Source: Candidatus Tayloriibacteriota bacterium | GTDB taxonomy: Bacteria; Patescibacteriota; Minisyncoccia; Phycocordibacterales; PALSA-1337 | Length of the DNA: 64,000 nucleotides | Reading direction: 5' to 3' | Assembly (NCBI GenBank): GCA_943350765.1 | Contig: CALRAJ010000003.1 | Coordinates: 65,456 to 129,455 of the forward strand | Shown: positions 6,819 to 64,000 of the stretch, piece after piece | Numbering within the stretch: the stretch's first letter is position 1 | Layout: each line of letters opens with the position of its first letter | Made by a program: the position numbers and the translations under genes | The notes under the pieces: generated by a model | What the model saw: the letters and a program-made list of their open reading frames with translations, nothing else | Told to the model about the DNA's origin: nothing | Databases searched by the model: none

Positions 6819-7799
6819 ATGAATAAAGAAGAATTATTTCAAGAGCTTTCGAGTAAAATAAGTACAGGTGAGATACAGCGTGATGAGCTGGTTAGCCGTT
6901 TTGGATTTTCGTCAGTAATGCAAGGGGGGAGTAAAGCGGAAGTTTCTAGTAACTCCGCAACATTCTCCGTAACAAAAATGCTTTATTTTTTGGGTGCAGC
7001 TATTGCAGTTGTCGGTATTATTATTTTTGTTTCCCAAATCTGGTCTGACATAGGATCTTTTGGACGCATATCGGTTACATTAGGTCTCGGTTTTGTTATC
7101 ACAGCTGTAGGATCATTGCTTTTAAATCAAAAGCCAAATGACAATATTGGGTCAGTTTTTCATTTTATTGGTGGAATGTTGGTCCCTGGGGGCGCGATGG
7201 TTACTCTTACTGAGTTGAGTACAGGACAGGATACTTTGTGGCCGGTTGCCTTTACATTTGGAGTAGTATTTGTATTTTATTTGTTATTAAACTTTGTCCA
7301 CAAAACTGCTATTCTAACTTTCTTTGCTATAGCAAACGGCACCGCCTTTGTGTACTTGCTCGTGGGCGCTATTACTGATGGTTCAATTTATATGAATGGT
7401 GATTTGTACGCCTATCTTACTATGGTAATAGGTGTGAGTTATATCTTACTAGCATACGCTTTTCGTGAAGGTTGGAATAATAAGCTTGTTTGGATTCTTT
7501 ATAATTTTGGTATCACGGGTTTCCTGGGAGCAGCTTTTACCCAAGTATTTGATTCTGTTATATGGCAAATGCTCTATTTCCTCCTTATAATCCTAGGCTT
7601 TTTTATAGCCGTGTCTATGAAAAGTCGTGGTATTTTAACTATCAGCACACTTTTTCTTATTGGTCATGTTTCGTATATTACTAGCGAATATTTTGCTGAT
7701 TCTATTGGCTGGCCTATTTCCCTTGTTATACTGGGCTTTGTTTTTATAGCTCTCGGATACGCTTCTATCTCTATCAATAAAAATTATATTGCAAAATAG
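6819..7799 (+). CDS. hypothetical polytopic membrane protein
   Basis: 326 aa with about 8 hydrophobic helices. Confidence 0.4.
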   Translation: MNKEELFQELSSKISTGEIQRDELVSRFGFSSVMQGGSKAEVSSNSATFSVTKMLYFLGAAIAVVGIIIFVSQIWSDIGSFGRISVTLGLGFVITAVGSLLLNQKPNDNIGSVFHFIGGMLVPGGAMVTLTELSTGQDTLWPVAFTFGVVFVFYLLLNFVHKTAILTFFAIANGTAFVYLLVGAITDGSIYMNGDLYAYLTMVIGVSYILLAYAFREGWNNKLVWILYNFGITGFLGAAFTQVFDSVIWQMLYFLLIILGFFIAVSMKSRGILTISTLFLIGHVSYITSEYFADSIGWPISLVILGFVFIALGYASISINKNYIAK

Positions 7800-7873: not shown

Positions 7874-7984
7874 GCTCCATATAGCCACTTTCTAGGAACC
7901 ACTGATCCATTAGACGCGAGTGACCTTTTTTCAGGTTGCGTTAGGTATTTTGTGTCATATTGACCGATGTGCTATAGTTTATGT

Positions 7985-8740
7985 ATGTTAGAAAAATACC
8001 TTCAAGAAATAGGGCTTAATGAAAAAGAGGCGAGCGTGTACCTAGCCTTACTCCAATACGAAAATGCTTCAGCGATTGATATTTCTGAAAAAACTAAGAT
8101 CAACCGTTCGACCACATACACAGTTTTGGAATCACTGGCAAAAAAGGGTCTAGTAAGTGAGACGACCGTAGGTGTAAAAACTCGATATCACGCAGAATCA
8201 CCAGAGCGTTTGGAGTCTTTTGTTGAAAGACAAAAAGTTATTCTAGAGGAACACTCAAAGCGCTTAAAGGACATTATTCCACAGATCAAGAGTGTGCAGA
8301 GAGAGAGCGGAGAAAAACCGATCGTTCAGTATTATGATGGAAGGGAGGGTATTATTACCTCAGCAGAAAGACTCTATGAGAAAAATGATGAGGGCGGGGA
8401 AGTCTATTTGATGTACTCACGCGACCTGATTACAGATATTTTTTCAGAAACTGAAAATAAAAAATATAGAAAAATAAGACTTGATAAGGGTATTAAGTCC
8501 AAGGTTCTGTACACATACAAAACAGGTGAGCTAAAATCCGATGAAATGGGCGACAGAGTAAAGATTGATGGCGAAAAGTACCCAATAAAATGTGATATTG
8601 CAATATATAAGGATAGAGTACGAATAAACACTCTCACAAAATCTTTATCTAGCGTTTTTATTAAGAGTCAGGATTTGGCGGATACTCTGCGAAGCCTATT
8701 CGACCTAGCACATGATTATATAAAAAAAAGTCGGCCATAG
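7985..8740 (+). CDS. TrmB-family transcriptional regulator
   Basis: N-terminal wHTH LNEKEASVYLALLQYENASAIDISEKTKINRSTTYTVLESLAKKGLV. Start taken at MLEKY. Confidence 0.7.
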   Translation: MLEKYLQEIGLNEKEASVYLALLQYENASAIDISEKTKINRSTTYTVLESLAKKGLVSETTVGVKTRYHAESPERLESFVERQKVILEEHSKRLKDIIPQIKSVQRESGEKPIVQYYDGREGIITSAERLYEKNDEGGEVYLMYSRDLITDIFSETENKKYRKIRLDKGIKSKVLYTYKTGELKSDEMGDRVKIDGEKYPIKCDIAIYKDRVRINTLTKSLSSVFIKSQDLADTLRSLFDLAHDYIKKSRP

Positions 8741-10220
8741 TTACCTATGACCGACTCGCGTACTAGCTTTTAGTATAAATCTATTTCCGATGCCCTTTTC
8801 GTGCTAATCAGAATGATTTTACTAACCAATGAGGTGATTTTTCCCCTAATCAGACTTCACCATAGACTTTACCTTGCCTGCTGGGGTTTTCCCCTTAATC
8901 GGACTCGCCGCTGTGCTGCATAATAGGCCTTTTGGCTTGTTGTTTGTGGTGTGCCTGAGAGAACTCGACTGGAGTGGGCTTCCAATACCGTGTTCTAGTG
9001 CCAATGAGGTCCACTAGAACACGGTACTTTCTGCCTAGCTTAGTCGCTCATTGTGTCCTCCTTTGGCTACAGGTGGCTAGTATTGCCGGCGTCTCATGAC
9101 ACCACCACCCTACATCCAAAAGACAGTATATACTATCTGCGGTACATTTGTCAAGTATTACTAACATTTTTCATGACTAAGGCTATATTACTAGCCATAT
9201 TTTCATATAAATCAACGATTAATAGCCATTTTAAGTGTTTTTAATAAATGACAGAATTATTTTATTAAGAATTATAAAAATAATATGTCAAAGAAATACT
9301 AATAATGTTATATCTCAATAACACTTATATATGTATAAATAGCTTTAAATAAGGATATCATGGTATTTAAAAACGAGAAGTGTCAAAAAGGCTTGACAAA
9401 AATACTGTATCGTGTATACTCATGCACAGATTGATTTTTGATTGCGTTGGGTACTTCTTTGTGTTTCTTTAAAAAACTTCTCGGCCTCCCAGTAATACAG
9501 TGGGGTTTTAAAGAGAACATTTTTGAGAAGCACAAAGAAGTATCCAATTTTATACCAAAATGCACATCATGAGTGATGGCACAACCATGACCCACGCTGA
9601 GTGGCTCGCATGGTTGCGCGGGGAGTAGAAGTACTTCCTATGCTGCGATTGCAGAAATGTGATACGCGGGGTTTGGGTGTCTACCTGGCAAAATAAGGAC
9701 ACAGCAGATCAGAAACAATCAACGGAGAATTTTAAGATTCTCCACTTCATTGGGTTTACAACATTGTGTTGCAAATCCATAGAGTTTAGCTCTTTGAATA
9801 AAAACATTAGGTGTCTGCACTAAATTGTGTTTATGAGAAATGAGAAAGTATAAACATAGCTTAGTGCAGATACTTTGCATGTATCCGAGCACCAGTATCA
9901 CTGATGTGGTGATACGAAGGAAAGTAGGTATATCGTTTGTCGATCCAACAAACTCGCAGGGGGAAATCCTCGGAGTATTGATGGTTGATAAACGAGCCTG
10001 ACGGTACAGAGAACGGCTCTGATTACCGGACTTACTGAGCCCTAAACAGTTATTAGGCTGTTATGGGGGAGGGTAATAACTCCCGCTGACGAAAAGCTAT
10101 CGTCAGTACTTGGTGGATGAATGATCCCAGTGGATCGTTCGGAGGTTGTAGATAGGTCGCGACCTGTCTAGCCTCCACTGCATATAGTTTATTTCGATGC
10201 CCCCAGACACATGGTCTGGG

Positions 10221-10296
10221 TTCTGTCCGAGAGTATTTGCTCTCGCTGATGAGTCCGACCTATAGCGTAAAACGCTTGGCCATGAGGACGAAACAG
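10221..10296 (+). ncRNA. hammerhead ribozyme motif HHR1 (type-III-like topology)
   Basis: cuGUC | stem I cgagaguauuugcucucg | CUGAUGA | stem II gucc...ggac | GAAAC | ag. Predicted cleavage after C10227. Confidence 0.6.
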
Positions 10297-10621
10297 AATG
10301 TTCTTTAAAATAAGTACATCTACGCAAATAGTGTTTGAAATATCGATCACTGCTTGCGCAGATGTACATAGAAGACATCAAAGCGCCCACGGGCGACCGT
10401 GAGCACTTGATATTTGGAGCAAAATAAGGGCGTTGACCTTTATTTTGGAACCATGCAACTTCCGATTCATTTCGGAAGGCTTTTTTCAAGTTAAATCAGC
10501 TTCATTGCTGGATGTTGGATGATCACCGACAGGTAACCACTCGAATATTATTTGAGTGAACCACTTCTAGACTTCCTCCTTCGTAAATCCTGCCTAACTT
10601 CGGGTATAGGTTGAAGGGGGT

Positions 10622-10696
10622 TTCTGTCCACGAATATCATTCGTGCTGATGAGCTAGTCTAATACCGCATGGAGGTTGATGACAATAGCGAAACAG
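10622..10696 (+). ncRNA. hammerhead ribozyme motif HHR2
   Basis: cuGUC | stem I cacgaauaucauucgug | CUGAUGA | stem II cuag..uag with large loop | CGAAAC | ag. Cleavage after C10628. Confidence 0.5.
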
Positions 10697-10847
10697 AATG
10701 TTCTTTGAATAATTCGTCATAGCAGAAAGTGGCTCAAGTCTTGGGCTATTCTCCGCTATGACGAAACCTGTCGGTTACGTATAGCAAACGCACCCAAACC
10801 TTTTAAATAAGGGTTGTTTAGCGATAACGTTACCGCCTTGTAATATT

Positions 10848-11465
10848 ATGAATAACAATAAATTCAGCCTCGGTCGTAGTTCAGAAAATCTGGTGGTTCT
10901 CAAGAACGGTCAACCGTTCTTCACCAGTCCCATTGCAAACGCTTGCATGGGTTCCCTGGAAGTTGGACTTCAACTTCCTAATCTCCCTGTGACCAAGAAA
11001 GACGACAGCGTCTGCACTGGTTACATGGAGCCTTACTGGGGTAATGCCCATACCGAAATTCTCGTTGCTGGAGGGAGTTGCTGTGATGGTTACTTGATGG
11101 GCGTAAGTCCTGACGGTAAACTCACAAAAATTCTTGCCATCGACTTCAACATTCGATGCATCGCACCATTTATCTACACCATTCCTGCAAAGGAAGCTGG
11201 GAAAGATGAGCATGTGATGCTCGGGTTGTTGGTTTCGGGATCAGGCTGTTCGGGTTGCGGTGTCAGGTTTGTGGATTTCAATAGGCCAACACCTATTTCC
11301 ATGCCTGTCATTTCAACCGAGGAAGCGGCGAAGCGTTCCAACTTCTGGCTTAACGGCGGTGACCCATTCAGCGTTGCTGATATTTGGGACCGTTTGGCTA
11401 AACTCGGCATCACTGCTGACAAGGAGAGGACCGCAATGGCTTCAAAAGCCTTCGTCGCCTTCTAA
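10848..11465 (+). CDS. hypothetical protein (cassette ORF A)
   Basis: 205 aa, Cys/Gly-rich. No recognisable domain. Confidence 0.45.
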   Translation: MNNNKFSLGRSSENLVVLKNGQPFFTSPIANACMGSLEVGLQLPNLPVTKKDDSVCTGYMEPYWGNAHTEILVAGGSCCDGYLMGVSPDGKLTKILAIDFNIRCIAPFIYTIPAKEAGKDEHVMLGLLVSGSGCSGCGVRFVDFNRPTPISMPVISTEEAAKRSNFWLNGGDPFSVADIWDRLAKLGITADKERTAMASKAFVAF

Positions 11466-11556
11466 CGAACAGAGGGACTGCGGCATCGGCACGCGGGCTA
11501 TGCATACTAGCTGGCAACAGAATAGTATGAACCGGGATTAGTAATTTACTAATCAA

Positions 11557-11607
11557 TACTGTCCGAGAGTGCGTACTCTCGCTGAAGAGCTCAAAAGAGC
11601 GAAACAG
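11557..11607 (+). ncRNA. hammerhead ribozyme motif HHR3 (minimal)
   Basis: cuGUC | cgagagugcguacucucg | CUGAAGA | g cuc aaaa gag c | GAAAC | ag. Cleavage after C11563. Confidence 0.6.
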
Positions 11608-11924
11608 AATGTTCTTAAAACCAAAAATCTTTAACCTCCGCTTTATTTATTTTATTCCGAAATAGAATGCATAAAGCGGAGGTGTAAAGAACGCCACTCC
11701 GACTTCACCGAAGGGAAGGGCGGTGGTCGTAACCACTGTCAGCAACTAAACCGCACTCAAACATTGGCAGGTTGAAAACTGTCTTGGGTAATTCCAGATA
11801 ATGAGCAGTCATTATTATTTGAGAGGTGTAGTTGCAAGCTATAAATCATAAGCCAAGGGTGGCAAATTACCACCCTGTTGATTTATAGAAGGAGAATGCT
11901 CAGTAATTCAATACCCAGCCTTCT

Positions 11925-11982
11925 CCACTTTATTGAGTTCATAAAGAAATTTGTGGATTCATAGAGTTCTTTGAATTTTATG
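11925..11982 (+). promoter_or_regulatory. conserved leader hairpin motif, copy 1
   Basis: ctttattgagttcata...tgtggattcatagagttctttgaattttATG. Stem tgagttcata/tgtggattca holds only if GU wobbles are allowed. Homologous to 13051-13124 and 15818-15886. Confidence 0.5.
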
Positions 11983-12228
11983 TGGTATGACTGGGAATGG
12001 ATACAGTGGGCCAAGGAAGAGTGGTGGTATCTGGAAGTTAAACCTGAGAGTCCTCTCGGGAGGAAAATCAGATGGAAACTTCTGGTGAAAGCCGCTCTTG
12101 CTTATCTGCGTTCCGGAAAAGTCCAAGAAGAAAACTCAACCATCAGGGATGCCGTCAGGCTGGCACACGGGTGGGTGCAGAGTAATTTTCAGGGAATCGG
12201 AGTGTGGTTGGGCACTGGTCAACACTAA
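11980..12228 (+). CDS. hypothetical small Trp-rich protein (cassette ORF B)
   Basis: ATG at 11980 (MWYDWEW...), directly after the leader motif. Short, so low confidence. Confidence 0.3.
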   Translation: MWYDWEWIQWAKEEWWYLEVKPESPLGRKIRWKLLVKAALAYLRSGKVQEENSTIRDAVRLAHGWVQSNFQGIGVWLGTGQH

Positions 12229-12314
12229 CCATTTAAAACTGCCATATAAGTATGGCGGAGCACGGGTCACGGCTTGGCAACAGAATTGTGACAAATAAAT
12301 CTTGGTGTGCAGAA

Positions 12315-12397
12315 ACATGTGATGATACAGCATTATAAATGTATCCGTAATTCCTCGGTGAAGTTCCGAGGCGCCTGACGAGCGGAAATTGTTGGGG
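12315..12397 (+). repeat. composite intergenic repeat, blocks X plus Y, copy 1, continuous with HHR4
   Basis: acatgtgatgatacagcattataaatgtatccgtaat followed by hairpin ccucggugaaguuccgagg and cgccugacgagcggaaauuguugg. The same blocks recur at 16278-16384 and partly at 12854-12907. Confidence 0.55.
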
Positions 12398-12411
12398 ATC
12401 GCAAGATTCTC

Positions 12412-12466
12412 CTCTGTCTCGGAATGTGTTATTCCGACTGATGATGACTCAAAAGAGTCGAAACAG
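12412..12466 (+). ncRNA. hammerhead ribozyme motif HHR4 (minimal)
   Basis: cuGUC | ucggaauguguuauuccga | CUGAUGA | ug acuc aaaa gagu c | GAAAC | ag. Cleavage after C12418. Confidence 0.6.
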
Positions 12467-12538
12467 AGTGTTCTTTAAAATATATTTCATAGCACAGTCT
12501 CATTAAAGGGTCGATTTTCGATTTGATGGGAGTGTGCT

Positions 12539-12769
12539 ATGAAATATAAAACAAATTGGAAGCCGATTGTAGGAAGTCTCGATGAGTTACCTGTGCTAAG
12601 GAGCGCAACAACCCTAAGTGGGGTTGTTGAGTCAGCTTCTCGGACAGGGTCACTCGTTGTCCTTCTCGACGATGGAAGCAAGGTTGGAGTTTCAGGTGGA
12701 AAATATGCCCAAAAAGGACAAAGGGTCATACTCACTGATGGGGCTGATGGAGGTTATGTTGTGGCCTAA
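12539..12769 (+). CDS. hypothetical small protein (cassette ORF C)
   Basis: 76 aa, Gly/Val-rich. Confidence 0.35.
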   Translation: MKYKTNWKPIVGSLDELPVLRSATTLSGVVESASRTGSLVVLLDDGSKVGVSGGKYAQKGQRVILTDGADGGYVVA

Positions 12770-12853
12770 AAATCCAAGGTAATCCTAGCGGAGGCTAGTA
12801 CAACACTCACCACTCCCGCACATTCTCGGTGGGACAAAAAGTGGTCAAATCAT

Positions 12854-12907
12854 GGGACGTAATTCTTCGGGGAAGCTCCGAAGCGCCTAGCGAGCGGAAA
12901 TTGTTGG
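12854..12907 (+). repeat. partial X'-Y repeat without hammerhead
   Basis: gacgtaattcttcggggaagctccgaagcgcctagcgagcggaaattgttgg, homologous to 12340-12397. Confidence 0.5.
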
Positions 12908-13050
12908 TTTGGTAGTTGCTCCACAGCATACTTTATGGCACTTGCGTGTTAACTACTCAAGTGCAAAGGATCTACTCGTAGGCTTGATGGGTGAACCCGT
13001 CGGCATAAGAAAGAGTTGGCAAAAGATCCTGCTTGAGAACCACCTATTCT

Positions 13051-13124
13051 CGAGCACTTTATTGAGTCCATACAGTGAAATATTCTTATGGACTCATTGA
13101 GTGATTGTTTTTTGTGAATAAAAT
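13051..13124 (+). promoter_or_regulatory. conserved leader hairpin motif, copy 2
   Basis: gagcactttattgagtccata cagtgaaatattct tatggactcaa, a perfect 11-bp stem. The ATG of ORF D lies 27 nt downstream. Track ORF 12909-13100 overlaps it and is probably non-coding. Confidence 0.55.
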
Positions 13125-13574
13125 ATGAAAAAAAGAGGCGACACGGTTAGGTTCAACGACGTACACTTCGTTGTGTATCAGATTGTCAGGCCGATAGCCA
13201 TTGAGGGGGTCTTTGTGCTTCCTCTGGTGTTTGCTACGATGCCACTCACAACATCTGAACTTTTGGTAACCACCCCGAGAGGTCAGATGATAGCTCAGTG
13301 TTGGAATATGCGGAATGTCTCTGAAAAAGCTTTTGGACGGCTTGGAGATTCTGAGATAGGCATACTTTCCTTGGGGGAGATGGATCGCGTCCGGTTCGTT
13401 GTAAGGAATTTTTGGTCTGGATCCGATATTCCTCCTCATGTCGCGGAGTACTACGGGATTCATCCGATTGGCGATGACCACCCCGATCTTGAGCAGTACC
13501 TCAGAAGCTGGACTCGGAAAGTTGATCCGATTCAGGTGGATATCCGTGCCGAACTTTTTGGAAGGGGCATGTGA
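13125..13574 (+). CDS. hypothetical protein (cassette ORF D)
   Basis: 149 aa; GC noticeably higher than the flanking housekeeping genes. Confidence 0.4.
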   Translation: MKKRGDTVRFNDVHFVVYQIVRPIAIEGVFVLPLVFATMPLTTSELLVTTPRGQMIAQCWNMRNVSEKAFGRLGDSEIGILSLGEMDRVRFVVRNFWSGSDIPPHVAEYYGIHPIGDDHPDLEQYLRSWTRKVDPIQVDIRAELFGRGM

Positions 13575-13592
13575 GTTTTTCGGAATCAATAA

Positions 13593-14021
13593 GTGGACGA
13601 TGTAACGTTCACTTTCTTATCAAGTCCATCAACGATGGTGGGCTTGTTGGAAAAACGACAGAATTTCGAATTATCTATGAGCACAAATTTTCAGTCGGCA
13701 ATGGTCGAATGGGTTCTGACGGGAAACAATACGGAGGAAGACCCTTTTGAGTTTGAGTTCCATGCGATAACCAGCGATGAGGAGAGTAAGTTTCTTAGGC
13801 CGTTTGTCGTCGCTACAGTGTGGGTGGCCGGTGACGATTATGGTTTAATCGGGCCGTGCCTAGATAGATTGTTTGAAGAGAGTCGGTTTGCAGGCATGGC
13901 CCGTTACGGAAATGTTCGGCTGTCAACCATCGGTCTCGTTGTTTTTGATGGTATTGGAAAACTAACCTTCGCTTTGACTGATGAAGGTCAGTATGTGTGT
14001 TGTTTCGATAGTTTCACTTGA
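13593..14021 (+). CDS. hypothetical protein (cassette ORF E)
   Basis: 142 aa. Its first 25 codons are duplicated at 15250-15318. Confidence 0.4.
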   Translation: MDDVTFTFLSSPSTMVGLLEKRQNFELSMSTNFQSAMVEWVLTGNNTEEDPFEFEFHAITSDEESKFLRPFVVATVWVAGDDYGLIGPCLDRLFEESRFAGMARYGNVRLSTIGLVVFDGIGKLTFALTDEGQYVCCFDSFT

Positions 14022-14281
14022 TGGACCGCCGATCTCCATGGTACATGATCGGCAATTTATCAAGCTCGGCATTTTCCACACTGTAAAGTTGGAAAAATGA
14101 TGAGCTTGTAGATTTGATTTCAGTTCTTTGAAATCTCGTAACACATTTCATGTTCGACAGGTGAATGGGGACAGTCTAGACCCCCGTTCACTTGTTGAAA
14201 AATCCAAATAGGCATATCTGGAAGTTGCAAAAAAGCGACAGGATATGAGGGGTAGAGATTGCATCAATATTTCTATTTTTT

Positions 14282-15187
14282 GTGATGAGTGAACTTGTTA
14301 TGAAAATCACAATCTTGGTGAAGTGTGTCCAACTCGACCCCCGCCCTCAAGGCGCGGGAGGCAACGAGGAGTTTTTCCGCGGTAACCGCGTTCTCGGCAT
14401 CGAAGTCACGATTCCGAGCCTTGCGGCCCGCTGTATCGCTAACCTCGACCACCATGGCGAACATGACACAGCGGAAACGCCAAGTGCCTGTGAGCAAGCT
14501 CTCACCAAGAGCCTCGGCAATACTGGCGTAATCATGGCGACGGTTCGGCCTGATGCTGACTCGGTGACCGCCATGGCGGTTTTGGCACGGCAGCTCGAAG
14601 GCCTGTCAGTGGATGAAGACCTCATCCGCGCGGTCGGAGCCTTCGACCGGCTGGGGCCAGCTGCCGGGCGTCCGGAAGATCGCGTCATTGCGATCGCTCG
14701 GAAGGCGATGGACTTCAAGATCCTCCTGTGTGATCGGGTGATCTGGGTGGCTGACCTTATCGGGGGTGAGGACAAGTCGGCCGAGGTCGCGACTTTGGTG
14801 GCGTCTCACGATGCCGACATCGCCGCGGCTCGGCAGGCATCGCAAATCAGCACCCGCTCTTCCAAAGGGGTGATGATCGCATCGGTCACCTCTACTCACC
14901 GCAACGCCACCCTGCTCGGCTACGAGGCTGGACAGGTGGTGGTGGCGTTTAACCCCACCATGGCGGTGGACCCGAAGTCGCCCTCTGCCGGTACCTACGA
15001 GAAGTTCACGGTCTGCAGGTACGACTCCCATGTCAGGTGCGATTTGCCCTCAGCTCTCAAAGAACTTCAAGCTCTCGAAGTTGGGTGGGGTGGTCGCGGC
15101 GACATCTTCGGGTCCCCTCAGGGTGTCAGTTCGACCTTAGTGACGGCACAGGTGTTGGAAGTGGTTGCTCGCCACTGCTACGAATAA
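14282..15187 (+). CDS. hypothetical protein, markedly GC-rich (cassette ORF F)
   Basis: 301 aa, Ala/Arg/Gly-rich. Several antisense ORFs overlap it, as expected for high GC. Composition differs from the host genes. Confidence 0.4.
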   Translation: MMSELVMKITILVKCVQLDPRPQGAGGNEEFFRGNRVLGIEVTIPSLAARCIANLDHHGEHDTAETPSACEQALTKSLGNTGVIMATVRPDADSVTAMAVLARQLEGLSVDEDLIRAVGAFDRLGPAAGRPEDRVIAIARKAMDFKILLCDRVIWVADLIGGEDKSAEVATLVASHDADIAAARQASQISTRSSKGVMIASVTSTHRNATLLGYEAGQVVVAFNPTMAVDPKSPSAGTYEKFTVCRYDSHVRCDLPSALKELQALEVGWGGRGDIFGSPQGVSSTLVTAQVLEVVARHCYE

Positions 15188-15249
15188 GTTTTGACGGCGT
15201 TTGAGCAACGCCATCACATACCGCAATATGTGATTTCGAATCAACATGT

Positions 15250-15318
15250 AAATCAACAAGTGGACGATGCGGCGTTCACTTTCTTATCAAGTCCATCAAC
15301 GATGGTGGGCTTGTTGGA
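15250..15318 (+). repeat. direct repeat of the 5' end of ORF E
   Basis: caacaagtggacgatgcggcgttcactttcttatcaagtccatcaacgatggtgggcttgttggaaag is near-identical to 13585-13655. It encodes MDDAAFTFLSSPSTMVGLLERRGYQ and then a stop. Confidence 0.6.
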
Positions 15319-15406
15319 AAGAAGGGGATATCAATGATCCCGAAGTGGTTATTGAGAGGGCTAGACGGCAGATGGCCGAGAATTATGAAGGATTAGATTG
15401 AAAATT

Positions 15407-15570
15407 ATGGGAAAAGGTACGAAGTCCTTCAAGGTGTCAGGCGGTTCGGGAGGAAAGCGTGGTCACTCTAACATGTGCCATTGGACAGTTACTGCTGAAA
15501 TCAAGGCAGTTTCCAAGAGGGCGCGTCGTCTGGAAACCAAGCGTCTCATCGCTACTGAACGCCAAGACTA
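15407..15570 (+). CDS. possible small basic protein (54 aa)
   Basis: MGKGTKSFKVSGGSGGKRGHSNMCHWTVTAEIKAVSKRARRLETKRLIATERQD. Below the ORF-track size cutoff and speculative. Confidence 0.2.
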
Positions 15571-15817
15571 GAAGGCAATAACACCTTGCAAAAGGTTGCC
15601 ACAAAATCCGGTGGTGTAAATCAAGGTAAACAGTTTTGTCCCCGTTTTTTCTGAAAAAAATGGATGAGCCTAGAGGAAGCAGAGCCTCAAATGTTTTGTT
15701 CTTAAGGGGATCAATTTTTGCTAGCAAGAATTGATAAAGGATCTATCCCATAGCGTGATGAGAAATCATCGGCGTAAGGGGTGGCACAGATCCATGCTCA
15801 AAGAAAGGACCTAATCT

Positions 15818-15886
15818 TGAGCACTTTATTGAGTCCGTGCAGTGAAATACATTCGCGGATTCATAGAGTTCTTTACAAATTATGTT
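15818..15886 (+). promoter_or_regulatory. conserved leader hairpin motif, copy 3
   Basis: cttgagcactttattgagtccgtg cagtgaaatacatt cgcggattca tagagttctttacaaattatg. The stem is kept by compensatory and wobble changes relative to copies 1 and 2. Confidence 0.55.
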
Positions 15887-16219
15887 ATGAGTATGAAAAC
15901 CAACTCAGTTATCGGGGCTGTCATTTTGGTAGTCGTAATCTTCCTAACCACTGGTTGTGAGGAGGCTGACAAGAGTCAGTTCAACCTCACATCGTTTCCG
16001 ACTAACCACTGGAAAGTGGTCGGTCAGGGAACGAATGGGCAAGTCGTCGTCGAGACGACATCCACTAACCTGTTGCAGTACTTTCGGGTACACCTAGCGA
16101 CAGCTGTGGTTCCCTTGACTAACGGGCAATCGGCCCGACTCGAGGTAACCACAAGGTGGAATCCCAGGAAAGGGGTGCGGGAGATTATCTCCTCCATGGC
16201 TTATCCAGCGATGGAGTGA
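15887..16219 (+). CDS. hypothetical lipoprotein (cassette ORF G)
   Basis: MSMKTNSVIGAVILVVVIFLTTGCEE is a signal peptide plus lipobox Cys. First in-frame ATG after the leader motif. Confidence 0.4.
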   Translation: MSMKTNSVIGAVILVVVIFLTTGCEEADKSQFNLTSFPTNHWKVVGQGTNGQVVVETTSTNLLQYFRVHLATAVVPLTNGQSARLEVTTRWNPRKGVREIISSMAYPAME

Positions 16220-16277
16220 TGAAGTAAGGTTGAAATTGAACCTCTAAAATTCTCCTCTCCTGCAGAGTGCGCAGGGA

Positions 16278-16384
16278 ACATGTGATGGTACAGCATTATA
16301 AATGTATCCGTAATGTGATTTGGCTAATACCAAATCCGACTCTGGGGAAGCTCCGGGGCGCTTGACGAGCGGAAACTGTTGGGG
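16278..16384 (+). repeat. composite intergenic repeat, blocks X plus Y, copy 2, continuous with HHR5
   Basis: acatgtgatggtacagcattataaatgtatccgtaat, then a 30-nt insert, then ctctggggaagctccggggcgcttgacgagcggaaactgttgggg. Confidence 0.55.
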
Positions 16385-16398
16385 ATCATAAGATCCTC

Positions 16399-16453
16399 CC
16401 CTGTCTCGGAATGTGTTATTCCGACTGATGATGGCTCAAAAGAGCCGAAACAG
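16399..16453 (+). ncRNA. hammerhead ribozyme motif HHR5 (minimal)
   Basis: cuGUC | ucggaauguguuauuccga | CUGAUGA | ug gcuc aaaa gagc c | GAAAC | ag. Cleavage after C16405. The stem II changes a-u to g-c relative to HHR4 and so are compensatory. Confidence 0.6.
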
Positions 16454-16499
16454 AATGCTGGTGTGCTTGTTGGAAAAATTACGGTATTCGTATTTCCCT

Positions 16500-16835
16500 A
16501 TGAAGACATTTCAAGACGAAGTCTGTGGCGATCTGGTGGCCTCGGTGATATCTGGCTACACATCCCTGAATCATTCGGATGTTAAGGCGTGGATTATGAA
16601 GTGGGGGTTGATGCCCGTTGAATTCCCTCAAGACCTCTGTCTTTCGTTGATTGAGATAGACGAGGATCATGAGACTGATGGCGGCTTGGTTATAAACCTC
16701 GGAAAGATTGATGGTACCAGGAAATGGTATGCAAACAAACCCAAAGATGTCATCGAAAAAGTTCGACGGGATATTGCCGACGCACTACGGGATCTAGGAG
16801 CTGTTACCAAAGAATCTTCTCGGGCGACGGACTGA
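16500..16835 (+). CDS. hypothetical protein (cassette ORF H)
   Basis: Track ORF 16413 overlaps HHR5, so start is moved to ATG 16500 (MKTFQDE...). Confidence 0.35.
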   Translation: MKTFQDEVCGDLVASVISGYTSLNHSDVKAWIMKWGLMPVEFPQDLCLSLIEIDEDHETDGGLVINLGKIDGTRKWYANKPKDVIEKVRRDIADALRDLGAVTKESSRATD

Positions 16836-16938
16836 TCCATGCGATAGGCGGTCATAAAAGTTTTCAAAGTGCCTGACCAGCACTTTTTTATTTTGTAATA
16901 CATCTCTTAAAATGCTAGTATGAGGGCTATATAATAAT

Positions 16939-19900
16939 ATGACAGATGAAACTAAAAATAAGCTGATACAGCCTTTAATTCCAGTACAGAAAAGCTTGGT
17001 TGCTCAAAAAGAGGAGGAAATTCTCGCTTTTTGGCAGAAAAATAATATTTTCAAAAAGACTATCGAAAAGCCTGCACCAAAAGGTGATTTTGTGTTTTAT
17101 GATGGACCACCTTTTGCTACGGGTCTGCCACATTTTGGGCATCTTTTGCCAACCTCGATCAAAGACGCTATTCCTCGTTATAAAACCATGCAGGGCTTTC
17201 GGGTAGCTCGTCGCTGGGGCTGGGACTGTCACGGTTTACCTATAGAAAATCTGGTGGAAAAAGAGCTTGGACTGAAAACCAAGCAGGACATTGAAAGCTT
17301 CGGTGTAGGAAATTTTAATAAGGCCGCACGGGATACTGTATTGCGATACGCCTCGCAATGGAAAGAAATCATTCCCCGCATCGGGCGTTTTGTGGATATG
17401 GAGGACGATTATCGTACTATGGATGCTTCCTATACCGAGTCCGTCTGGTGGGTATTTAAAACACTTCATGAAAAGGGCCTCGTACATCAGGGCTTCAAGT
17501 CCATGCAACTCTGTCCGAGATGTGAGACCACACTATCAAACTTCGAAGTCAATCTAGGGTATAAAGACATTACTGATATTTCAGTATTTGTAACCTTTCC
17601 ACTTCTAGAGGATCCTAGTATTTCACTTATTGCATGGACCACAACACCATGGACTTTGCCCGGTAATGTAGCTCTCGCGGTGGGGGCGGATATTGTGTAT
17701 GTACAGATTGCGCTTGAAGGTAAAAAGTATATTGTAGCAAAGGAGCGAGTGGGGCAGGTGGCAAAGGATAAGGCGTATACGATCGAGAAGGAATTTAATG
17801 GCACTGATTTGGTAGGTAAAAAATATGTACCGATTTTTGATTATTATATAAATGATACGGCACTCGCAAATAGAGAAAATGGCTGGAAAATAGTAGTAGG
17901 AGATTTTGTGACTACGACTGATGGCTCAGGTATTGTGCATATTGCTCCAGCTTTCGGGGAAGACGATTATGAGCTCTCAAAGCGAGAAAAATTGCCTTTT
18001 GTGCAACATGTTACAACAGGTGGATTATTTAAAAAAGAGGTTACGGATTTTGCTGGACAGTCAGTAAAGCCAAAAGAAGACCCTACTCAGACCAAGTCTG
18101 ACGGGCAAGTCCATCAGAAGGCTGATATCGAAATTATCAAACATCTCGCTCACGCGGGACGACTTTTTGGTAAAGAAAAAATTATTCACTCGTACCCGCA
18201 CTGTTGGCGTTGTGAGACCCCACTTTTAAATTACGCTTCTTCGTCGTGGTTTGTAAATGTACCAAAGATCAAAGACCGACTGGTAGCAGAAAATAAAAAG
18301 ATTGGCTGGACGCCAGAGTTTGTGGGAGAGGGAAGGTTTGGCAACTGGCTGTCTGGAGCGAGGGAGTGGGCGATTTCTCGCTCGAGATACTGGGGTGCAC
18401 CACTGCCAGTCTGGAAATGTAGTGAATGTGACAAAAAAGAATTCATAGGCTCAGTAGAAGAGCTCAAAAAGCATCTCAAGCCGAGAAACACCTATTATGT
18501 GATGAGACATGGTCAGTATCCGGGGAACGCAGAAGGTTTCTTGTGTTCAGGGCTCGACTGCGCAGGATTGACAGATGTTGGTCGTGGTGAAGCGATTAAA
18601 GCTACTAAAACTCTTTCTGACACAAAGATTGATTTGATCATAACCTCACCTCTTGCGAGAACAAAGGAGACCGCATATATCGTTGCAGAAAATTTGGGTA
18701 TTACAAAAGAAAAGATTGTTGAGGATGAGCGACTTCAGGAAATAAAGTTTGGTATTTTTAACGGTAAGCCTGCTGGGGAATACCATAAACAATTTGAAGG
18801 TGGAGGTGATGGCTGGTTCACAAAAGGTCCTGTGGATGCAGAAAGTCATTTGCAAGTAAAACACCGAATGGGGGATGCTCTTTATGACCTAGAACAGAAA
18901 TATCAAGGTAAAAAGATTTTGATTGTGACACACGATACTCCAGCGTGGCTTTTGATAGCCGCTTCTTTGGGGCTTAATCAAAAAGATACTATCGATCTTC
19001 ATCCTGGTGGGGATTTTATGAAAAATGCTGAAGTCAAAGAAATGCCTTTTGTAACAATTCCACATAATGCTGACTACGAGCTCGACCTCCACCGGCCGTA
19101 TATCGACGAGGTGACTTTTACCTGCTCATGTGGAGGAATAATGAAGCGAGTGCCAGAGGTTTTTGATTGTTGGTTTGAGTCTGGCGCAATGCCTTATGGT
19201 CAAAATAAGTATCAAGGTACAGCACTTTCTGGATTTGATCCAAAAAGTGCTATGGGTTTCCCTGCTGACTTTATTGCAGAAGGACTAGATCAAACTCGTG
19301 GCTGGTTTTACTCGATGCTCGTCCTAGGTGTAGCTTTGTTTGATAAAACTCCTTATAAAAATGTTATCGTAAACGGAGTGATTTTGGCAGAGGACGGACG
19401 AAAGATGTCAAAATCACTTAAAAATTATCCAGACCTGATGCTCACGGTAGATAAATACGGTGCAGACGCTTTGAGGTACTATTTGCTCGCATCACCATCG
19501 GTGCGAGCCGAAGACGCTTGTTTTTTTGAAAAAGGTGTAGATGAAGTAGTAAAAAAGCACATCGGTCGTCTGAACAATGTCTACACATTCTATGCTCTAT
19601 ATTCCCAAGGCGAAAACGCACTATCTGCGAGTGCGGACTCTAAAAACATTCTCGATATATGGATACTTGCGAGACTAGCCGAGCTGGTAGAGACGGTAGA
19701 AGCCTCGATGGAAAAATACGAGCTAGACCGAGCATCTCGACCGATTGCCGATTTTATAGACGATCTTTCCACTTGGTATATTCGTCGTTCAAGAGACCGT
19801 TTCAAATCAGAAGATATTGCGGATAAAAAATCTGCACTACAAACTACGAGGTTTGTGCTGGAACATTTATCAAAAGTGATCGCACCTTTTATGCCGTTTT

Positions 19901-20499
19901 TGGCAGAAGATATATATCAAAAAGTGAAAGGTTCAAACGGGTTTGAAAGTGTCCATTTGGCAGAGTGGCCTCAGGTGGATTTTGTAGATAAAGCACAACA
20001 GCTAAAAGTAATCACCAGCATGCAAGAAGTTCGAAAGATCGTAACACTAGGTCTTGAAGCTAGGATGCGAACAAAAATAAATGTGAGGCAGCCACTTTCG
20101 GTACTAAAAATAAAGCTACCCGTATCAATATCTATTGCTGAAAAAGAAATGATTGCTTTGATAGCTGATGAGGTAAATGTTAAGCGGATTGTATCAGATG
20201 AAACAATAAATACTGAAGTGGAACTGGATACCCTGATCACCCTAGAGCTAAAAGCCGAAGGGCAGGTCAGAGAGCTTATTCGAGCTATTCAGGATTTACG
20301 AAAGAAACAAGGTCTGACCGTTACGGATAGACCTGTGCTTTCTGTGGCGACAAGTGATATTGGTAAAAAACTCTTGACCGATTTTAAAAAAGAAATCAGT
20401 AGAGCGACTCAGCTAAGAGAACTTTTGATTTTAGATACTGGGGTGGGGGAAAGGGTGGTTTTGGACGAAGTTATTTTCGAGCTTGTTCTCGTTATGTAG
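16939..20499 (+). CDS. ileS: isoleucyl-tRNA synthetase with an inserted histidine-phosphatase (PGAM-like) domain
   Basis: HIGH-type motif PHFGHLL, WTTTPWTLPGN in the editing domain, KMSKS, and anticodon-binding C-terminus. At 1186 aa it is over-long because of a domain at about 18487-19010 (YYVMRHGQ...IVTHDT). Confidence 0.9.
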   Translation: MTDETKNKLIQPLIPVQKSLVAQKEEEILAFWQKNNIFKKTIEKPAPKGDFVFYDGPPFATGLPHFGHLLPTSIKDAIPRYKTMQGFRVARRWGWDCHGLPIENLVEKELGLKTKQDIESFGVGNFNKAARDTVLRYASQWKEIIPRIGRFVDMEDDYRTMDASYTESVWWVFKTLHEKGLVHQGFKSMQLCPRCETTLSNFEVNLGYKDITDISVFVTFPLLEDPSISLIAWTTTPWTLPGNVALAVGADIVYVQIALEGKKYIVAKERVGQVAKDKAYTIEKEFNGTDLVGKKYVPIFDYYINDTALANRENGWKIVVGDFVTTTDGSGIVHIAPAFGEDDYELSKREKLPFVQHVTTGGLFKKEVTDFAGQSVKPKEDPTQTKSDGQVHQKADIEIIKHLAHAGRLFGKEKIIHSYPHCWRCETPLLNYASSSWFVNVPKIKDRLVAENKKIGWTPEFVGEGRFGNWLSGAREWAISRSRYWGAPLPVWKCSECDKKEFIGSVEELKKHLKPRNTYYVMRHGQYPGNAEGFLCSGLDCAGLTDVGRGEAIKATKTLSDTKIDLIITSPLARTKETAYIVAENLGITKEKIVEDERLQEIKFGIFNGKPAGEYHKQFEGGGDGWFTKGPVDAESHLQVKHRMGDALYDLEQKYQGKKILIVTHDTPAWLLIAASLGLNQKDTIDLHPGGDFMKNAEVKEMPFVTIPHNADYELDLHRPYIDEVTFTCSCGGIMKRVPEVFDCWFESGAMPYGQNKYQGTALSGFDPKSAMGFPADFIAEGLDQTRGWFYSMLVLGVALFDKTPYKNVIVNGVILAEDGRKMSKSLKNYPDLMLTVDKYGADALRYYLLASPSVRAEDACFFEKGVDEVVKKHIGRLNNVYTFYALYSQGENALSASADSKNILDIWILARLAELVETVEASMEKYELDRASRPIADFIDDLSTWYIRRSRDRFKSEDIADKKSALQTTRFVLEHLSKVIAPFMPFLAEDIYQKVKGSNGFESVHLAEWPQVDFVDKAQQLKVITSMQEVRKIVTLGLEARMRTKINVRQPLSVLKIKLPVSISIAEKEMIALIADEVNVKRIVSDETINTEVELDTLITLELKAEGQVRELIRAIQDLRKKQGLTVTDRPVLSVATSDIGKKLLTDFKKEISRATQLRELLILDTGVGERVVLDEVIFELVLVM

Positions 20500-59740: not shown

Positions 59741-60836
59741 AATAAAAACGCCCTAGTATATACTATCCGTTACCTGAATATGTTGAAGAATCACTTTAAA
59801 AAGCGCTAAAGATAACGGATATTTTTCTGTTGTTTTTAGAACCGCTTAAAAAAGCGGATTTTTGTTTCCAAAAAGGAAACACCCAACCGAATGGTGCGAG
59901 GTTTAGGGCTAAATCATTCACGAAGGCGAATGATCGCCCGACTCCACGAAATGGAGTTTAGGGTCCAGAAACGACCGTCACTTTGAAAAATAAATCCTAT
60001 CGTCGTATCAACTTGCGGTGTACTCTTTTGGGTATACGCGTGGGTCTTTTCGGTACGATAGATAGCTGTACTGCGGAAACGCAGTACAAAACCTTTATCA
60101 GGTTTTCAATCAGGATCTGGTAAAGCGAATTGGTAAGTCTGTGGGGAGAAATCTTCACAGACAATTGTAAGTAAATAATTGTGGTTTTTAAATTTCCTAA
60201 TAGGAAATTAAGAGCATATGGTGGATGCCTTGACTTGAAGAGGCGATGAAGGACGCGGTCTGGCTGCGATAAGCTTCGGGGAGGTGCCTAGCAACCTTTG
60301 ATCCGAAGATTTCCGAATGGGGAAACCCCTCGTGCTTGACACGAGACTCTGTAGCAATACAGAGAGCATACCCAGGGAAGTAAAACATTTCATTACCTGG
60401 TGGAAAAGAAAACAATGTCCGCAAGGACAATATTTCCTAAGTAGCGGCGAGCGAAAAGGAAAGAGCCCAAACCGAAGCATCACGGTGAGTGTGATAGATG
60501 AGGCGAAAGTCGAAAGTACGAAGTCTAAGGTCGATTCAAAATGCAAACACTATGCATTTGAGTTCACTTTTGACTTTTAGGCTTAGGACTTTCGACTTGT
60601 GCATCGTACCCAGCGTGATGCTTCGGGGTTGTAAGGTGAGAGCGTTCTATTTATAGAAGTAGAGTTAAAAAATAGTGTATTAGCTTAAATATCTGAAAAG
60701 ATATACCCTAGAAGGTTATAGTCCCGTAAGCGAAAATATACTATCTCTATTGTTCTCATTCTTGAGTACCTCGAGACACGAATGGCTCGGGGGAATCTGC
60801 CGGAACTAACCGGTAAGGCTAAATACTCTTCAAGAT

Positions 60837-60875
<39 letters not shown>

Positions 60876-61630
60876 GCCCGTCAAGGGCGGTGAAATAGAC
60901 CTGAAACCATATGCTTACAAGGAGTAGAAGCGGTGTCTCGCTTGTGCGAGGAAAAATAAAGAATGTATGTATTGAATTATTCTCCCTTTTTTAAAGGGAG
61001 CAGGCTCCATGCCGAGGGATTTAAATTTCAAATCCCTCCGCGCCAGAGTACTGTCGGTGCTCCCTTTAAAAAAGGGAGAATTTAATACAACAGCTTTTGA
61101 TTTTTATTCGTAAAAGTGAGACACCGTGACTGCGTGCCTATTGAAGAATGAGCCAACGAGTTAATGTATGCTGCAAGCTAAGTCCTTTACCGGATGGAGC
61201 TTCAGGGAAACCGAGTGTTAATAGCGCGTCTGTAGTATACATTAGACCCGAAGCCAGGTGAGCTTGTCATGCGCAGGGTGAACTCTCGAGAAATCGAGAG
61301 GGAGGCCCGAACCGGTGAGCCGTTCAATACTCTCGGATGACGTGTGATAAGGAGTGATAAGCTAATCGAACCTGGTAATAGCTGGTTCTCTCCGAAATAG
61401 CTTTTGGGCTAGCGTCGGAATTACCTTTGAGGGGTAGAGCACTGGAAGGTCTTGACAGGTCGAAAGATCCCGAGACCTATCAAACTCCGAATACTCAGAG
61501 TAAATTTTCCGGCAGTTAGACTGTGGGGGCTAAGCTCCATTGGTCAAAAGGGAAACAGCCCGGATCTCCATTTAAGGTCCCTAAATCTATGTTAAGTACG
61601 CTTAAGGTGGTAAGTTTTCTCAAACAATGA

Positions 61631-61662
<32 letters not shown>

Positions 61663-62610
61663 GAAAGCGTAACAGCTCACTCATCGAGAGAATTTGCGCC
61701 GCAGATAATCGGGGTTAAACATAGTACCGAAACTGAGGATTGCATATGTCTTCGGACGTATGCACTGGTAGGAGAGTATTCGCAACTGCACTGAAGGTAA
61801 AGGGGTGACCCATACTGGAGCGTTGCGAAGTAAGAATGTTGGCACAAGTAACCACAATGCAGGTGAGATACCTGCACGCCGAAAGACCAAGGATTCCTTG
61901 GCTATGTAAATCAGCCAAGGGTTAGTCGGGCCTAAGGGAATGGCGAAAGCCGTACTCGATGGACACATGGTTAATATTCCATGACGTATTTTGTGTGCGA
62001 CGGGATGACGAAGAGTAGTATGTATAGCGCATTATTGGATTTGCGTTTGTGTCGTCAGGGTGATTTCCAGGAAAATCCGGAAGTCTGTGTTTAATCACGC
62101 TCCAAGCGATATGAAGATGCTCGGGTTCGCTCGGGTAAATTGTACAAAGCACACTTTCAAGAAAAATCTCTAAGCATAACGCAAAGTACACCGTACCGCA
62201 AACCGACACAGGTGGTCAGCTCGAGTAGAGTAAGGCGAACGAGTGATTTTTCTCCAAGGAACTCGGCAAAAAAGCAGCCGTAACTTCGGAATATGGCTTG
62301 CCCGAGCATCACATGGGGTGTGATGCAGGCAAAAGTCGAAAGGTCGTAAGTCTGAAAGTCGGGATCCCGACTTTATGGACTCTATACTTTTAACTTTTGA
62401 CTCGTGCATCGCGCTTCGCGCGATGCTCGGGCCGCAGCGAAAGTATCCCTGGCAACTGTTTATCAAAAACACAGCTCCCTGCGAACTCGTAAGAGGATGT
62501 ATAGGGGGTGACACTTGACCAATGCCAGAAGGTCAAACGACGGCGGTGCTATGGTCGCAAGATTGTAGTGCTGGATGTTGTAAGCCCTGGTGAATGTCGG
62601 CCGTAACTAT

Positions 62611-63438: not shown

Positions 63439-64000
63439 AACGGTCCTAAGGTAGCGAAATTCCTTGTCAGGTAAGTTCTGACGTGCACGAATAGTGTAAT
63501 GACTGGGGAACTGTCTCGGAGAATAGCTCGGTGAAAATACAGTACCGGTGAAGATGCCGGTTACCTGCAGTTAGACGAAAAGACCCTAGAAGCTTTACTG
63601 CAGCTTGATATTGAGCATATGTTTTTGATGCGTAGCGTAGATGGGAGGATTTGAAGTGTATCTCTCGGGGTGCATGGATCCGCAAGTGAAATACCATTCT
63701 TTAAAAATATATGTTCTAACCTGTACGGCAAAAACGCACAGGGACATTATCTGGTGGGCAGTTTTAGTGGGGCGCTATCCTCCTAAAGAGTAACGGAGGA
63801 GTTTATTAAGGTCAGCTAGGCGCGAATGGAAACCGTGCCGATAGTGTAATGGCATAAGCTGGCTTAACTGTGAGGCGTACTTGCCAAGCAGATGCGAAAG
63901 CAGAACATAGTGAACCGACCATTCGCATTAGACGCGGTGGAAGATTATCGGATAAAAGCTACTCTAGGGATAACAGGCTGGTTGTGCCTAAGAGTTCATA

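Follow-up and report, generated by a model that had tools for sequence, protein, structure and literature searches.

A conserved RNA domain without an Rfam family found directly 5′ of type III hammerhead ribozymes in small-gene arrays of Paceibacteria

What does a repeated RNA element do when it lies between small genes and ends in a self-cleaving ribozyme? The question is raised by a 64,000-nucleotide (nt) stretch of DNA (here, the window) from “Candidatus Tayloriibacteriota bacterium” (GenBank assembly GCA_943350765.1, contig CALRAJ010000003.1, positions 65,456 to 129,455 of the forward strand), in which two short sequence blocks, termed X and Y, recur together with hairpins and a hammerhead ribozyme (HHR) between small open reading frames (ORFs). 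The X-Y region is a conserved folded RNA domain that belongs to no Rfam family and is found directly 5′ of hammerheads in small-ORF arrays of ultra-small members of the candidate phyla radiation (CPR), the Paceibacteria. Block X, a first hairpin (P1), block Y, and a second hairpin (P2) make up a single structured and conserved RNA domain of ∼95 to 120 nt, encoded on the coding strand. Hammerheads punctuating bacterial operons have been known since 2011; what appears from the sequence to be new here is the conserved and previously undescribed RNA domain attached to the hammerhead.

The repeat unit and its occurrence in other genomes

The first-pass annotation of the window had claimed a modular repeated element in which X is followed by a hairpin, by Y, and by a hammerhead, in two full copies and one partial copy. 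Both the element, at the RNA level, and its copy number were borne out: the full copies occupy positions 12317 to 12468 (copy 1) and 16280 to 16453 (copy 2), and the partial one (copy 3) is at 12858 to 12905, all on the + strand. In the repeat search, block X was 97% identical between the full copies (12314-12351 versus 16277-16314), and the 114-nt segment that spans the hairpin, Y, the second hairpin, and the hammerhead was 89% identical (12357-12470 versus 16344-16457), while the third copy of the hairpin and Y (12858-12907) showed 88% identity. The Y core, GACGAGCGGAAAYTGTTGG, with up to three mismatches allowed, occurs three times in the window, always on the + strand, and not once in 100 dinucleotide shuffles. 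Copy 2 differs by an extra hairpin (16315-16339; a net gain of 24 nt) between X and P1. Copy 3 shows neither a hammerhead nor a convincing second hairpin.

The unit recurs in related genomes, as the first-pass annotation had proposed to check, with a total of 19 distinct copies in Paceibacteria genomes and metagenomes, all of them on the coding strand in arrays of small ORFs with hammerheads in between. An exact-pattern scan of one genome per species produced eight matches. Five of these correspond to the chance expectation; the remaining three were in CPR genomes, whose records bear the titles Taylorbacteria, Liptonbacteria, and Paceibacterota. The pattern scan of metagenomes gave 16 matches, every one with the flanking hairpins, and a scan of viral contigs with the Y pattern gave none. 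A covariance model built from 14 sequences then recovered five more divergent copies that were beyond the reach of the patterns; copy 3 of the window scores 58.3 bits with this model.

When seven arrays were fetched blind, solely via homologs of the TrmB-family regulator, the domain was found in two of them (loci L031 and L046) and was absent from five. No degenerate version rose above noise in four of these five domain-free arrays in a search with filters off; the fifth, L052, was searched with default filters only. Hammerheads were confirmed in both domain-free arrays that were scanned (L033 and L036). Given the two blind arrays with the domain and the lack of a degenerate version in the others, X-Y is a discrete module that an array may have or lack, being there in full or not at all. 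It is also autonomous and separable from the hammerhead. Four copies (copy b of L022, L013, L006, and copy 3 of the window) have the domain without a hammerhead, and in L021 the same 5′ flank, P2, and hammerhead occur without the domain.

The only gene that stood out in a comparison of gene co-occurrence among the arrays was an ORF of ∼125 amino acids (aa) with a CxxC motif, found immediately upstream in nine arrays. The domain starts a few nucleotides after the stop codon of this ORF, and the ORFs that follow the hammerheads all differ. This linkage is the strongest hint that the domain belongs functionally to the upstream cistron.

Structure of the X-Y domain

According to the comparative analysis, the domain starts with X, a small H-type pseudoknot, and continues with the joiner AAU and hairpin P1; Y, likewise a small pseudoknot, and hairpin P2 complete it. 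Support for this structure as a whole comes from a covariation score of 0.354, compared with 0.206 after shuffling (none of the 500 shuffles reached the observed value), and from the 96% of cells that are paired, versus 42 to 53% in controls with slid partners. Hairpin P1 is paired in all 18 sequences, with compensatory changes in three of its six pairs; P2 has compensatory changes in six of eight pairs. The G·U pairs place the RNA on the + strand.

The second stem (S2) of the Y pseudoknot is paired in all 54 cells of the 18 sequences, and each observed change keeps the pairing. In L031, GAC is replaced by GGU and, eleven bases downstream, GUU is replaced by ACU, so that A-U becomes G-C and C-G becomes U-A, two compensatory pairs. 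In copy 3 of the window, a GA-to-AG swap keeps both pairs, as A-U and G·U, and a G-to-A change in copy b of L022 likewise keeps the pairing. The first stem (S1), CGC/GCG, is invariant, the third loop (L3) is A rich (GAAAYU), and the 3′ strand of Y runs straight into P2. The simpler reading of Y as a 5-bp hairpin (CGCYU/RAGCG with a triloop) was rejected: it is 86% paired, has a C·A mismatch in 13 of the 18 sequences, and shows no compensatory change. This mismatch, together with the variants just described, led to the adoption of the pseudoknot model.

In the commonest subfamily, X consists of the interleaved stems AGAC/GUCU and AUGGA/UCC-C-GU, each of which is 100% paired in 13 sequences with one compensatory pair. 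The upper part of S2 in X is wholly different between subfamilies and still complementary, the window subfamily having AUGU/GCAU and AUGAUACA/UGUAU-C-CGU. In the copies examined, the joiner UAAU precedes P1, either directly or before an inserted hairpin; copy 2 of the window and copy L006 from Liptonbacteria have such an insertion at the same junction. Pairings of the linker or the UAAU joiner with the loop of P1, the loop of P2, or the 3′ tail were tried by eye and showed no consistent complementarity.

In copy 1, the X pseudoknot, whose topology is assigned by analogy with its homologs, would occupy positions 12317 to 12348, with S1 formed by AUGU (12317-12320) and GCAU (12330-12333), S2 by AUGAUACA (12322-12329) and UGUAU-C-CGU (12340-12348), and L3 by UAUAAA (12334-12339). 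It is followed by the joiner AAU(U) (12349-12352) and by P1 (12353-12371), in which CCUCGG (12353-12358) and CCGAGG (12366-12371) enclose the loop UGAAGUU. The Y pseudoknot (12372-12393) comprises S1 (CGC, 12372-12374, with GCG, 12382-12384), S2 (GAC, 12377-12379, with GUU, 12391-12393), and the loops CU (L1), GA (L2), and GAAAUU (L3, 12385-12390). P2 (12394-12411; GGGGAUC/GCAA/GAUUCUC) is flush with stem III of the hammerhead. The X side of copy 2 (16280-16358) is made up of the X pseudoknot (16280-16311), AAU (16312-16314), the inserted hairpin (16315-16339; AUUUGG/CCAAAU), and P1 (16340-16358). Its Y pseudoknot (16359-16380) has the same CGC/GCG and GAC/GUU stems with GAAACU as L3, and its P2 (16381-16398) reads GGGGAUC/AUAA/GAUCCUC. 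Copy 3 retains CGUAAU, P1 (CUUCGG/CCGAAG), and Y with AGC replacing GAC, and lacks P2 as well as the hammerhead. It has a different 5′ domain (∼12790-12857), which it shares with locus L016.

The attached hammerhead ribozymes

The 3′ block of the unit is, as read from its sequence, a type III hammerhead with predicted cleavage sites. Both full copies in the window have the core CUGAUGA ... GAAA, with U16.1 and C17 and one extra U between A9 and stem II; stems I and II are capped and stem III is open, as is typical of type III. In copy 1 (12412-12468), stem III is CUCUGU/ACAGAG, and cleavage is predicted after C12418; stem I (12419-12437), the core CUGAUGA (12438-12444), stem II (12445-12459), and GAAA (12460-12463) follow. 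In copy 2 (16401-16453), stem III is CUGU/ACAG, cleavage is predicted after C16405, and the core CUGAUGA is at 16425 to 16431. Sensitive scans with the Rfam hammerhead model RF00008 aligned copy 1 at 12411 to 12469 (35.0 bits, E = 2.6e-6) and copy 2 at 16398 to 16456 (30.2 bits, E = 6.9e-5). Since both scores are below the gathering score of 48.5 bits, these ribozymes are missed in a default Rfam scan, and the gathering-threshold scan of the window reported only the 23S rRNA. The homologous hammerheads, with scores of 24.6 to 46.3 bits, also fall below the gathering score, with E values that are significant in short scans.

An intact type III hammerhead with covarying stems follows P2 in 15 of the 19 copies, the spacer between P2 and stem III being 0 to 2 nt in all 15. 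The core is CUGAUGA in 14 of these and UUGAUGA in L046. All three stems vary among the homologs and stay complementary: stem I is represented by UCGAGAU/AUCUCGA, UCGGAAU/AUUCCGA, GUGAAGU/ACUUCAC, and UCAGCC/GGCUGA, and stem III by CUGUU/AACAG and CUGCU/AGCAG. The L046 hammerhead (7271-7330) has U3 in place of C3 and the compensated stem III CUGCU/AGCAG; it may represent natural variation of the core or a ribozyme that is attenuated.

Type III hammerheads cut in the 5′ strand of stem III, that is, 3′ of the X-Y domain. Because of this position, X-Y would go with the upstream RNA, and the downstream cistron would start with the ribozyme. The first-pass annotation had described the unit as preceding cassette ORFs; this is misleading, as the domain is predicted to stay on the upstream fragment of the processed RNA.

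Three more type III hammerheads, without X-Y, are present on the + strand of the same array (10220-10299, 10622-10698, and 11559-11607). HHR1 and HHR3 have a hairpin 0 to 3 nt 5′ of stem III, and HHR2 has a weaker hairpin nearby. All five hammerheads of the array share the stem III sequence CUGUC/GAAACAG (10222-10228, 10622-10628, 11559-11563, 12412-12418, and 16401-16405, with matching GAAACAG sites). As far as can be judged from these sequences, the 3′ end produced by one cleavage could pair with the 5′ ribozyme body of the previous one, a geometry that would allow ligation or circularization of each cassette RNA.

Comparison with known RNA families

The first-pass annotation had also suggested that Y, with its CUGACGAG...GAAA sequence, might be a degenerate second hammerhead core. 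The string CUGACGAG-CG-GAAAC does resemble CUGANGA...GAAA. However, the homologs show that UGACGAG is replaced by UAACAAG in L022, UGGUAAG in L031, UGACAAG in L046, and UAGCGAG in copy 3 of the window, and GAAA by GUAA in L034. Such changes hit positions that could not vary in a hammerhead core, so Y is not one; they occur in otherwise intact copies, and the variable bases pair with GUU in the pseudoknot helix, the UAACAAG and UGGUAAG variants retaining these pairs. Moreover, Y has no stem II, with only GCG between the two strands, and no partners for stems I and III or cleavable triplet in register, CGC being what lies between P1 and CUGA. The Rfam hammerhead models align only to the downstream ribozyme. 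A minimal or degenerate hammerhead without stem II thus has a probability close to nil.

Other small self-cleaving ribozymes had been proposed as candidates, and scans of X-Y with the Rfam models of twister, twister-sister, pistol, hatchet, and HDV-like ribozymes gave no match. In permissive scans of ∼200-nt segments (the two full window copies and L018), no Rfam ribozyme aligned to X-Y at E values of up to 10, and none did so in the scan of the whole window. Among the riboswitch models, the sole alignment to Y was a chance-level one to Guanidine-III (ykkC-III; RF01763), in which a small H-type pseudoknot with the sequence ...GACGAG... similarly comes after a hairpin. However, this alignment was obtained for copy 1 only, with 10.0 bits compared with a gathering score of 36 (E = 7.2), and neither copy 2 nor L018 matched. 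In addition, GACGAG is not conserved among the Y variants, and no guanidine-related genes are found nearby. Block X was also considered as a possible sigma-70 promoter, with −35 and −10 hexamers separated by 16 to 18 nt, and rejected: in neither copy did the consensus scan call a promoter-like site within X, the strong site being that at 9393 to 9420.

The closest known parallel to the arrays is provided by the clusters of hammerheads in bacterial and prophage polycistronic transcripts, which lie on the same strand between individual genes or short gene groups of unknown function and have been proposed to cut a long transcript into RNAs of the length of a gene (Perreault et al. 2011; PMC3088659). 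The window differs from these clusters in its host, a member of the CPR (Paceibacteria), and in the lack of a phage signature in the array genes. Its ribozymes are all of type III and below the Rfam gathering score, and some carry the double-pseudoknot domain fused to their 5′ side. Full-text searches of the literature found no paper describing such a hammerhead-fused double-pseudoknot domain and nothing on hammerheads or the X-Y motif in CPR/Patescibacteria.

Intercistronic processing and other possible functions

The reading favored here, with confidence a little short of even, is that the composite is an intercistronic processing cassette in which the pseudoknot domain serves as a recognition or end-protecting module for the upstream RNA. 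The hammerhead would cut 4 to 7 nt 3′ of P2, i.e., after C12418 and C16405 in the window, so that the double-pseudoknot domain would become the 3′-terminal structure of the upstream RNA, ending in a 2′,3′-cyclic phosphate, and the downstream cistron would begin with the ribozyme body. The most likely role of the conserved loops would then be that of a surface specifically recognized by a protein or, possibly, by a small ligand, that of an exonuclease block, or both, governing the fate of the upstream cistron. This reading is in line with the proposal that clustered bacterial hammerheads, which flank genes, process polycistronic RNA (PMC3088659). Several observations weigh against it. Simple 3′-end protection needs no such strict conservation of loop sequences, and in the four copies without a hammerhead the domain would not be 3′ terminal. 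The window itself has no CxxC gene, the ORFs upstream of its three copies are mutually unrelated, and no candidate binding protein has been identified. The function assigned to the domain is suggested by its anatomy and context, and the X pseudoknot of the window copies is assigned by analogy. Finally, the Y pseudoknot rests on three variant lineages, with no variation in its S1, and the conservation of Y was partly forced by the search patterns used.

The broader alternative that the domain is itself catalytic or regulatory, either as a new class of small self-cleaving ribozymes or as the sensor of a natural ligand- or protein-controlled hammerhead in which pairing of GAGCGGA with UCUGUUC is the OFF state, is unlikely, albeit not so unlikely as to be passed over. 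Its two versions can be weighed separately. As a putative new ribozyme class, acting in tandem with the hammerhead or replacing it, X-Y would probably be cleaved at the conserved, single-stranded GUAAU joiner or at the Y junction. It is small and pseudoknotted, its stems covary freely, and its conserved nucleotides are concentrated in the junctions and loops; it is not tied to any one downstream gene, and it is kept intact in four intergenic regions without a hammerhead. The ribozymes of the twister-sister, pistol, and hatchet classes were found near other self-cleaving ribozymes (PMC5737381), in just this kind of neighborhood. X-Y shares with them its place beside a hammerhead and its conserved junction nucleotides; it differs in consisting of two H-type pseudoknots and two hairpins in series, in matching no Rfam model, and in that its catalysis is putative. 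With an intact hammerhead only a few nucleotides away, another ribozyme also seems redundant. This version is considered rather improbable.

The same low probability is given to the second version, in which X-Y is an aptamer or protein-binding sensor that switches the adjacent hammerhead on or off. If the Y pseudoknot were not stabilized, nucleotides 37 to 43 of Y (GAGCGGA) would pair with the substrate strand (UCUGUUC), so that stem III would be blocked. P2 abuts stem III, and GAGCGGA can form 5 to 7 contiguous pairs with the 5′ strand of stem III and N17 in 13 of the 15 copies, a pairing that excludes both S1 of Y and stem III. Among the minimum free energy structures computed with RNAfold for nine copies, this pairing appears in four (L018, L015, L007, and L021); in L005, L022, L014, and copy 2 of the window, the linker CUGUU pairs instead with the 3′ strand of the hammerhead. 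However, only four of the seven GAGCGGA pairs, noncontiguous ones, can form in either window copy, and where the putative helix changes at its ends (C to A at N17, G to A at 37, and A to U at 43), compensation is lacking. The role of the CUGUU linker as a decoy for the hammerhead 3′ strand was rejected, since L031 breaks this pairing and keeps the pseudoknot. The domain is fully conserved in the four copies that lack a hammerhead, the same arrays carry hammerheads without the domain, and gene associations indicate no ligand. Allosteric ribozymes are known, both natural, as in the combination of the c-di-GMP-II aptamer with a group I intron, and engineered, as in aptamer-hammerhead fusions. Like them, X-Y is a conserved structured domain directly beside a ribozyme, with possible mutually exclusive pairings; unlike them, it has no shared communication helix, shows no alternative pairing in the window copies, and persists without the ribozyme. 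If the domain did prove to be catalytic or ligand responsive, it would represent a new class of ribozymes or the first switchable hammerhead to be found in nature.

Two further readings can be set against the structural evidence. Most copies contain, on sequence reading, an AUG-started ORF of 7 to 26 codons that begins in X and ends either at the UAA of GUAAU or at the Y stop, UGA. Translation or termination at one of these stops might remodel the RNA and couple its regulation to translation. In L015, L018, and L034, AGGAGG lies 6 to 7 nt 5′ of the AUG, the 24-nt insertion in copy 2 keeps the frame, and in copy 3 the UGA is replaced in frame by UAG. However, the copies share no conserved leader peptide, their stops form two classes by position, and in L019 the AUG is replaced by ACG with the base pair kept. 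The compensatory changes in P1 are those expected of RNA structure and not of coding, and it is not unusual for 80 nt to contain stops in each of the three frames. Such translation-coupled regulation is therefore considered highly unlikely, and the short leader ORF is probably a by-product. There is, finally, only a very slight chance that the unit is a mere recent duplication without a function of its own. Copies 1 and 2 are 89 to 97% identical, and neighboring intergenic modules of the array are duplicated as well, but the domain is found in several CPR lineages, with many compensatory changes in four helices and with its loops fixed.

To return to the processing cassette, the domain is a candidate for the missing partner in ribozyme-mediated processing, bearing on the fate of upstream fragments and on the regulation of natural hammerheads. 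Arrays beside the same type of regulator in many CPR genomes would represent a compact system of interchangeable RNA modules, which include the hammerhead, the double-pseudoknot domain, a conserved hairpin of 18 bp, and a shared tail. With a domain that has no Rfam match and hammerheads that fall below the gathering score, standard annotation misses the whole system.

The array and its other RNA modules

The host of the window is a CPR-type bacterium, and the housekeeping genes around the region encode isoleucyl-tRNA synthetase (IleRS), RecO, a class II aminoacyl-tRNA synthetase, and MetRS. Between the gene for a TrmB-family regulator (7967-8740) and that for IleRS (from 16939) lies a 7.5-kb stretch of small ORFs, all on one strand. 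None of these has a Pfam match, and the only PHROG match is a weak one (E = 0.0035) to a family of unknown function; a phage origin of the array genes, with no meaningful match to PHROGs and none to Pfam, was accordingly rejected. According to the repeat search, the intergenic spaces consist of recurring RNA modules. A sigma-70-like promoter at the head of the array (9393-9420, + strand; TTGACA-16-TATACT, 11 of 12 consensus matches) and a terminator-like hairpin with a T run (16866-16886, + strand), which closes the array just before the IleRS promoter and gene, make it look like a single transcription unit, these sites being consensus matches and not functional evidence. Integron attC-like sites were also considered; this reading was dropped, as the stems covary with G·U pairs on one strand only, which indicates RNA, and no integrase gene adjoins the window array.

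The TrmB-family regulator (60 to 80% identity between genomes) heads similar arrays in every Paceibacteria contig examined (positions 7967-16938 of the window and L031, L033, L034, L036, L038, L044, L046, and L052). It is followed by a gene-poor leader of ∼1 to 2 kb and then by small ORFs without Pfam matches. The genes that flank these arrays differ, so their genomic contexts are varied. Type III hammerheads were confirmed wherever the TrmB-headed arrays were scanned, all of them below the Rfam gathering threshold. A micro-ORF of ∼20 codons (M-S-D-G-T-x-M-T-H-A-E-W-L-A-W-L-R...) is conserved at 9570 to 9629 of the window, at ∼2915 to 2850 on the − strand of L021, and at ∼1580 to 1651 of L007. 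It sits just 3′ of the conserved array promoter (TTGACA-16/17-TATACT), of which the window and L021 have nearly identical versions.

Hammerheads and long-hairpin modules are followed by a conserved 3′ tail, (U)GUUCUUUAAAAUA, located in copy 1 at 12469 to 12482 on the + strand. This tail (repeat family D4) has four copies in the window and is found in other genomes too. The array has a second RNA module that is conserved, a hairpin of 18 bp (ACUUUAUUGAGUYC ... GGAUUCAUAGAGU) with nine covarying pairs, followed by the same GUUCUUU tail as the hammerheads. It is found in the window at 9738-9800, 9813-9880, 11921-11983, 13042-13102, and 15809-15869, as well as in L013, L015, L019, and L021. This module, which has no Rfam match, fills intergenic positions that hold a hammerhead in other arrays. 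A long hairpin follows each hammerhead and its tail (12483-12560, 10713-10770, and 10310-10380), and the 3′ arm of the hairpin after HHR4 holds the start codon of the ORF at 12539 to 12769 (UUUCAUAGCACA...UGUGCUAUGAAA). Another intergenic module, with 94% identity over 70 nt, is repeated at 13584-13653, 15251-15320, and 16454-16508. It precedes the ORFs that start at 13677 and 16500, whose leaders are ∼73% identical over 55 nt (repeat D9).

Other features of the window

One of the cassette ORFs (14282-15187; 301 aa, no Pfam or PHROG match) has a G+C content of 55 to 62%, compared with ∼45% in the array and ∼38 to 45% in the genome neighborhood, which suggests a foreign origin. The IleRS-like ORF (16939-20499) contains a histidine-phosphatase domain (His_Phos_1, residues 520 to 687) inserted in its catalytic domain. 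Several large insertions are present in the 23S rRNA gene (60345-64000), together with a group I intron-like element at 63111 to 63355 (45.2 bits, just under the gathering score), which is overlapped by an ORF for a LAGLIDADG endonuclease (62789-63331; E = 1.6e-19).

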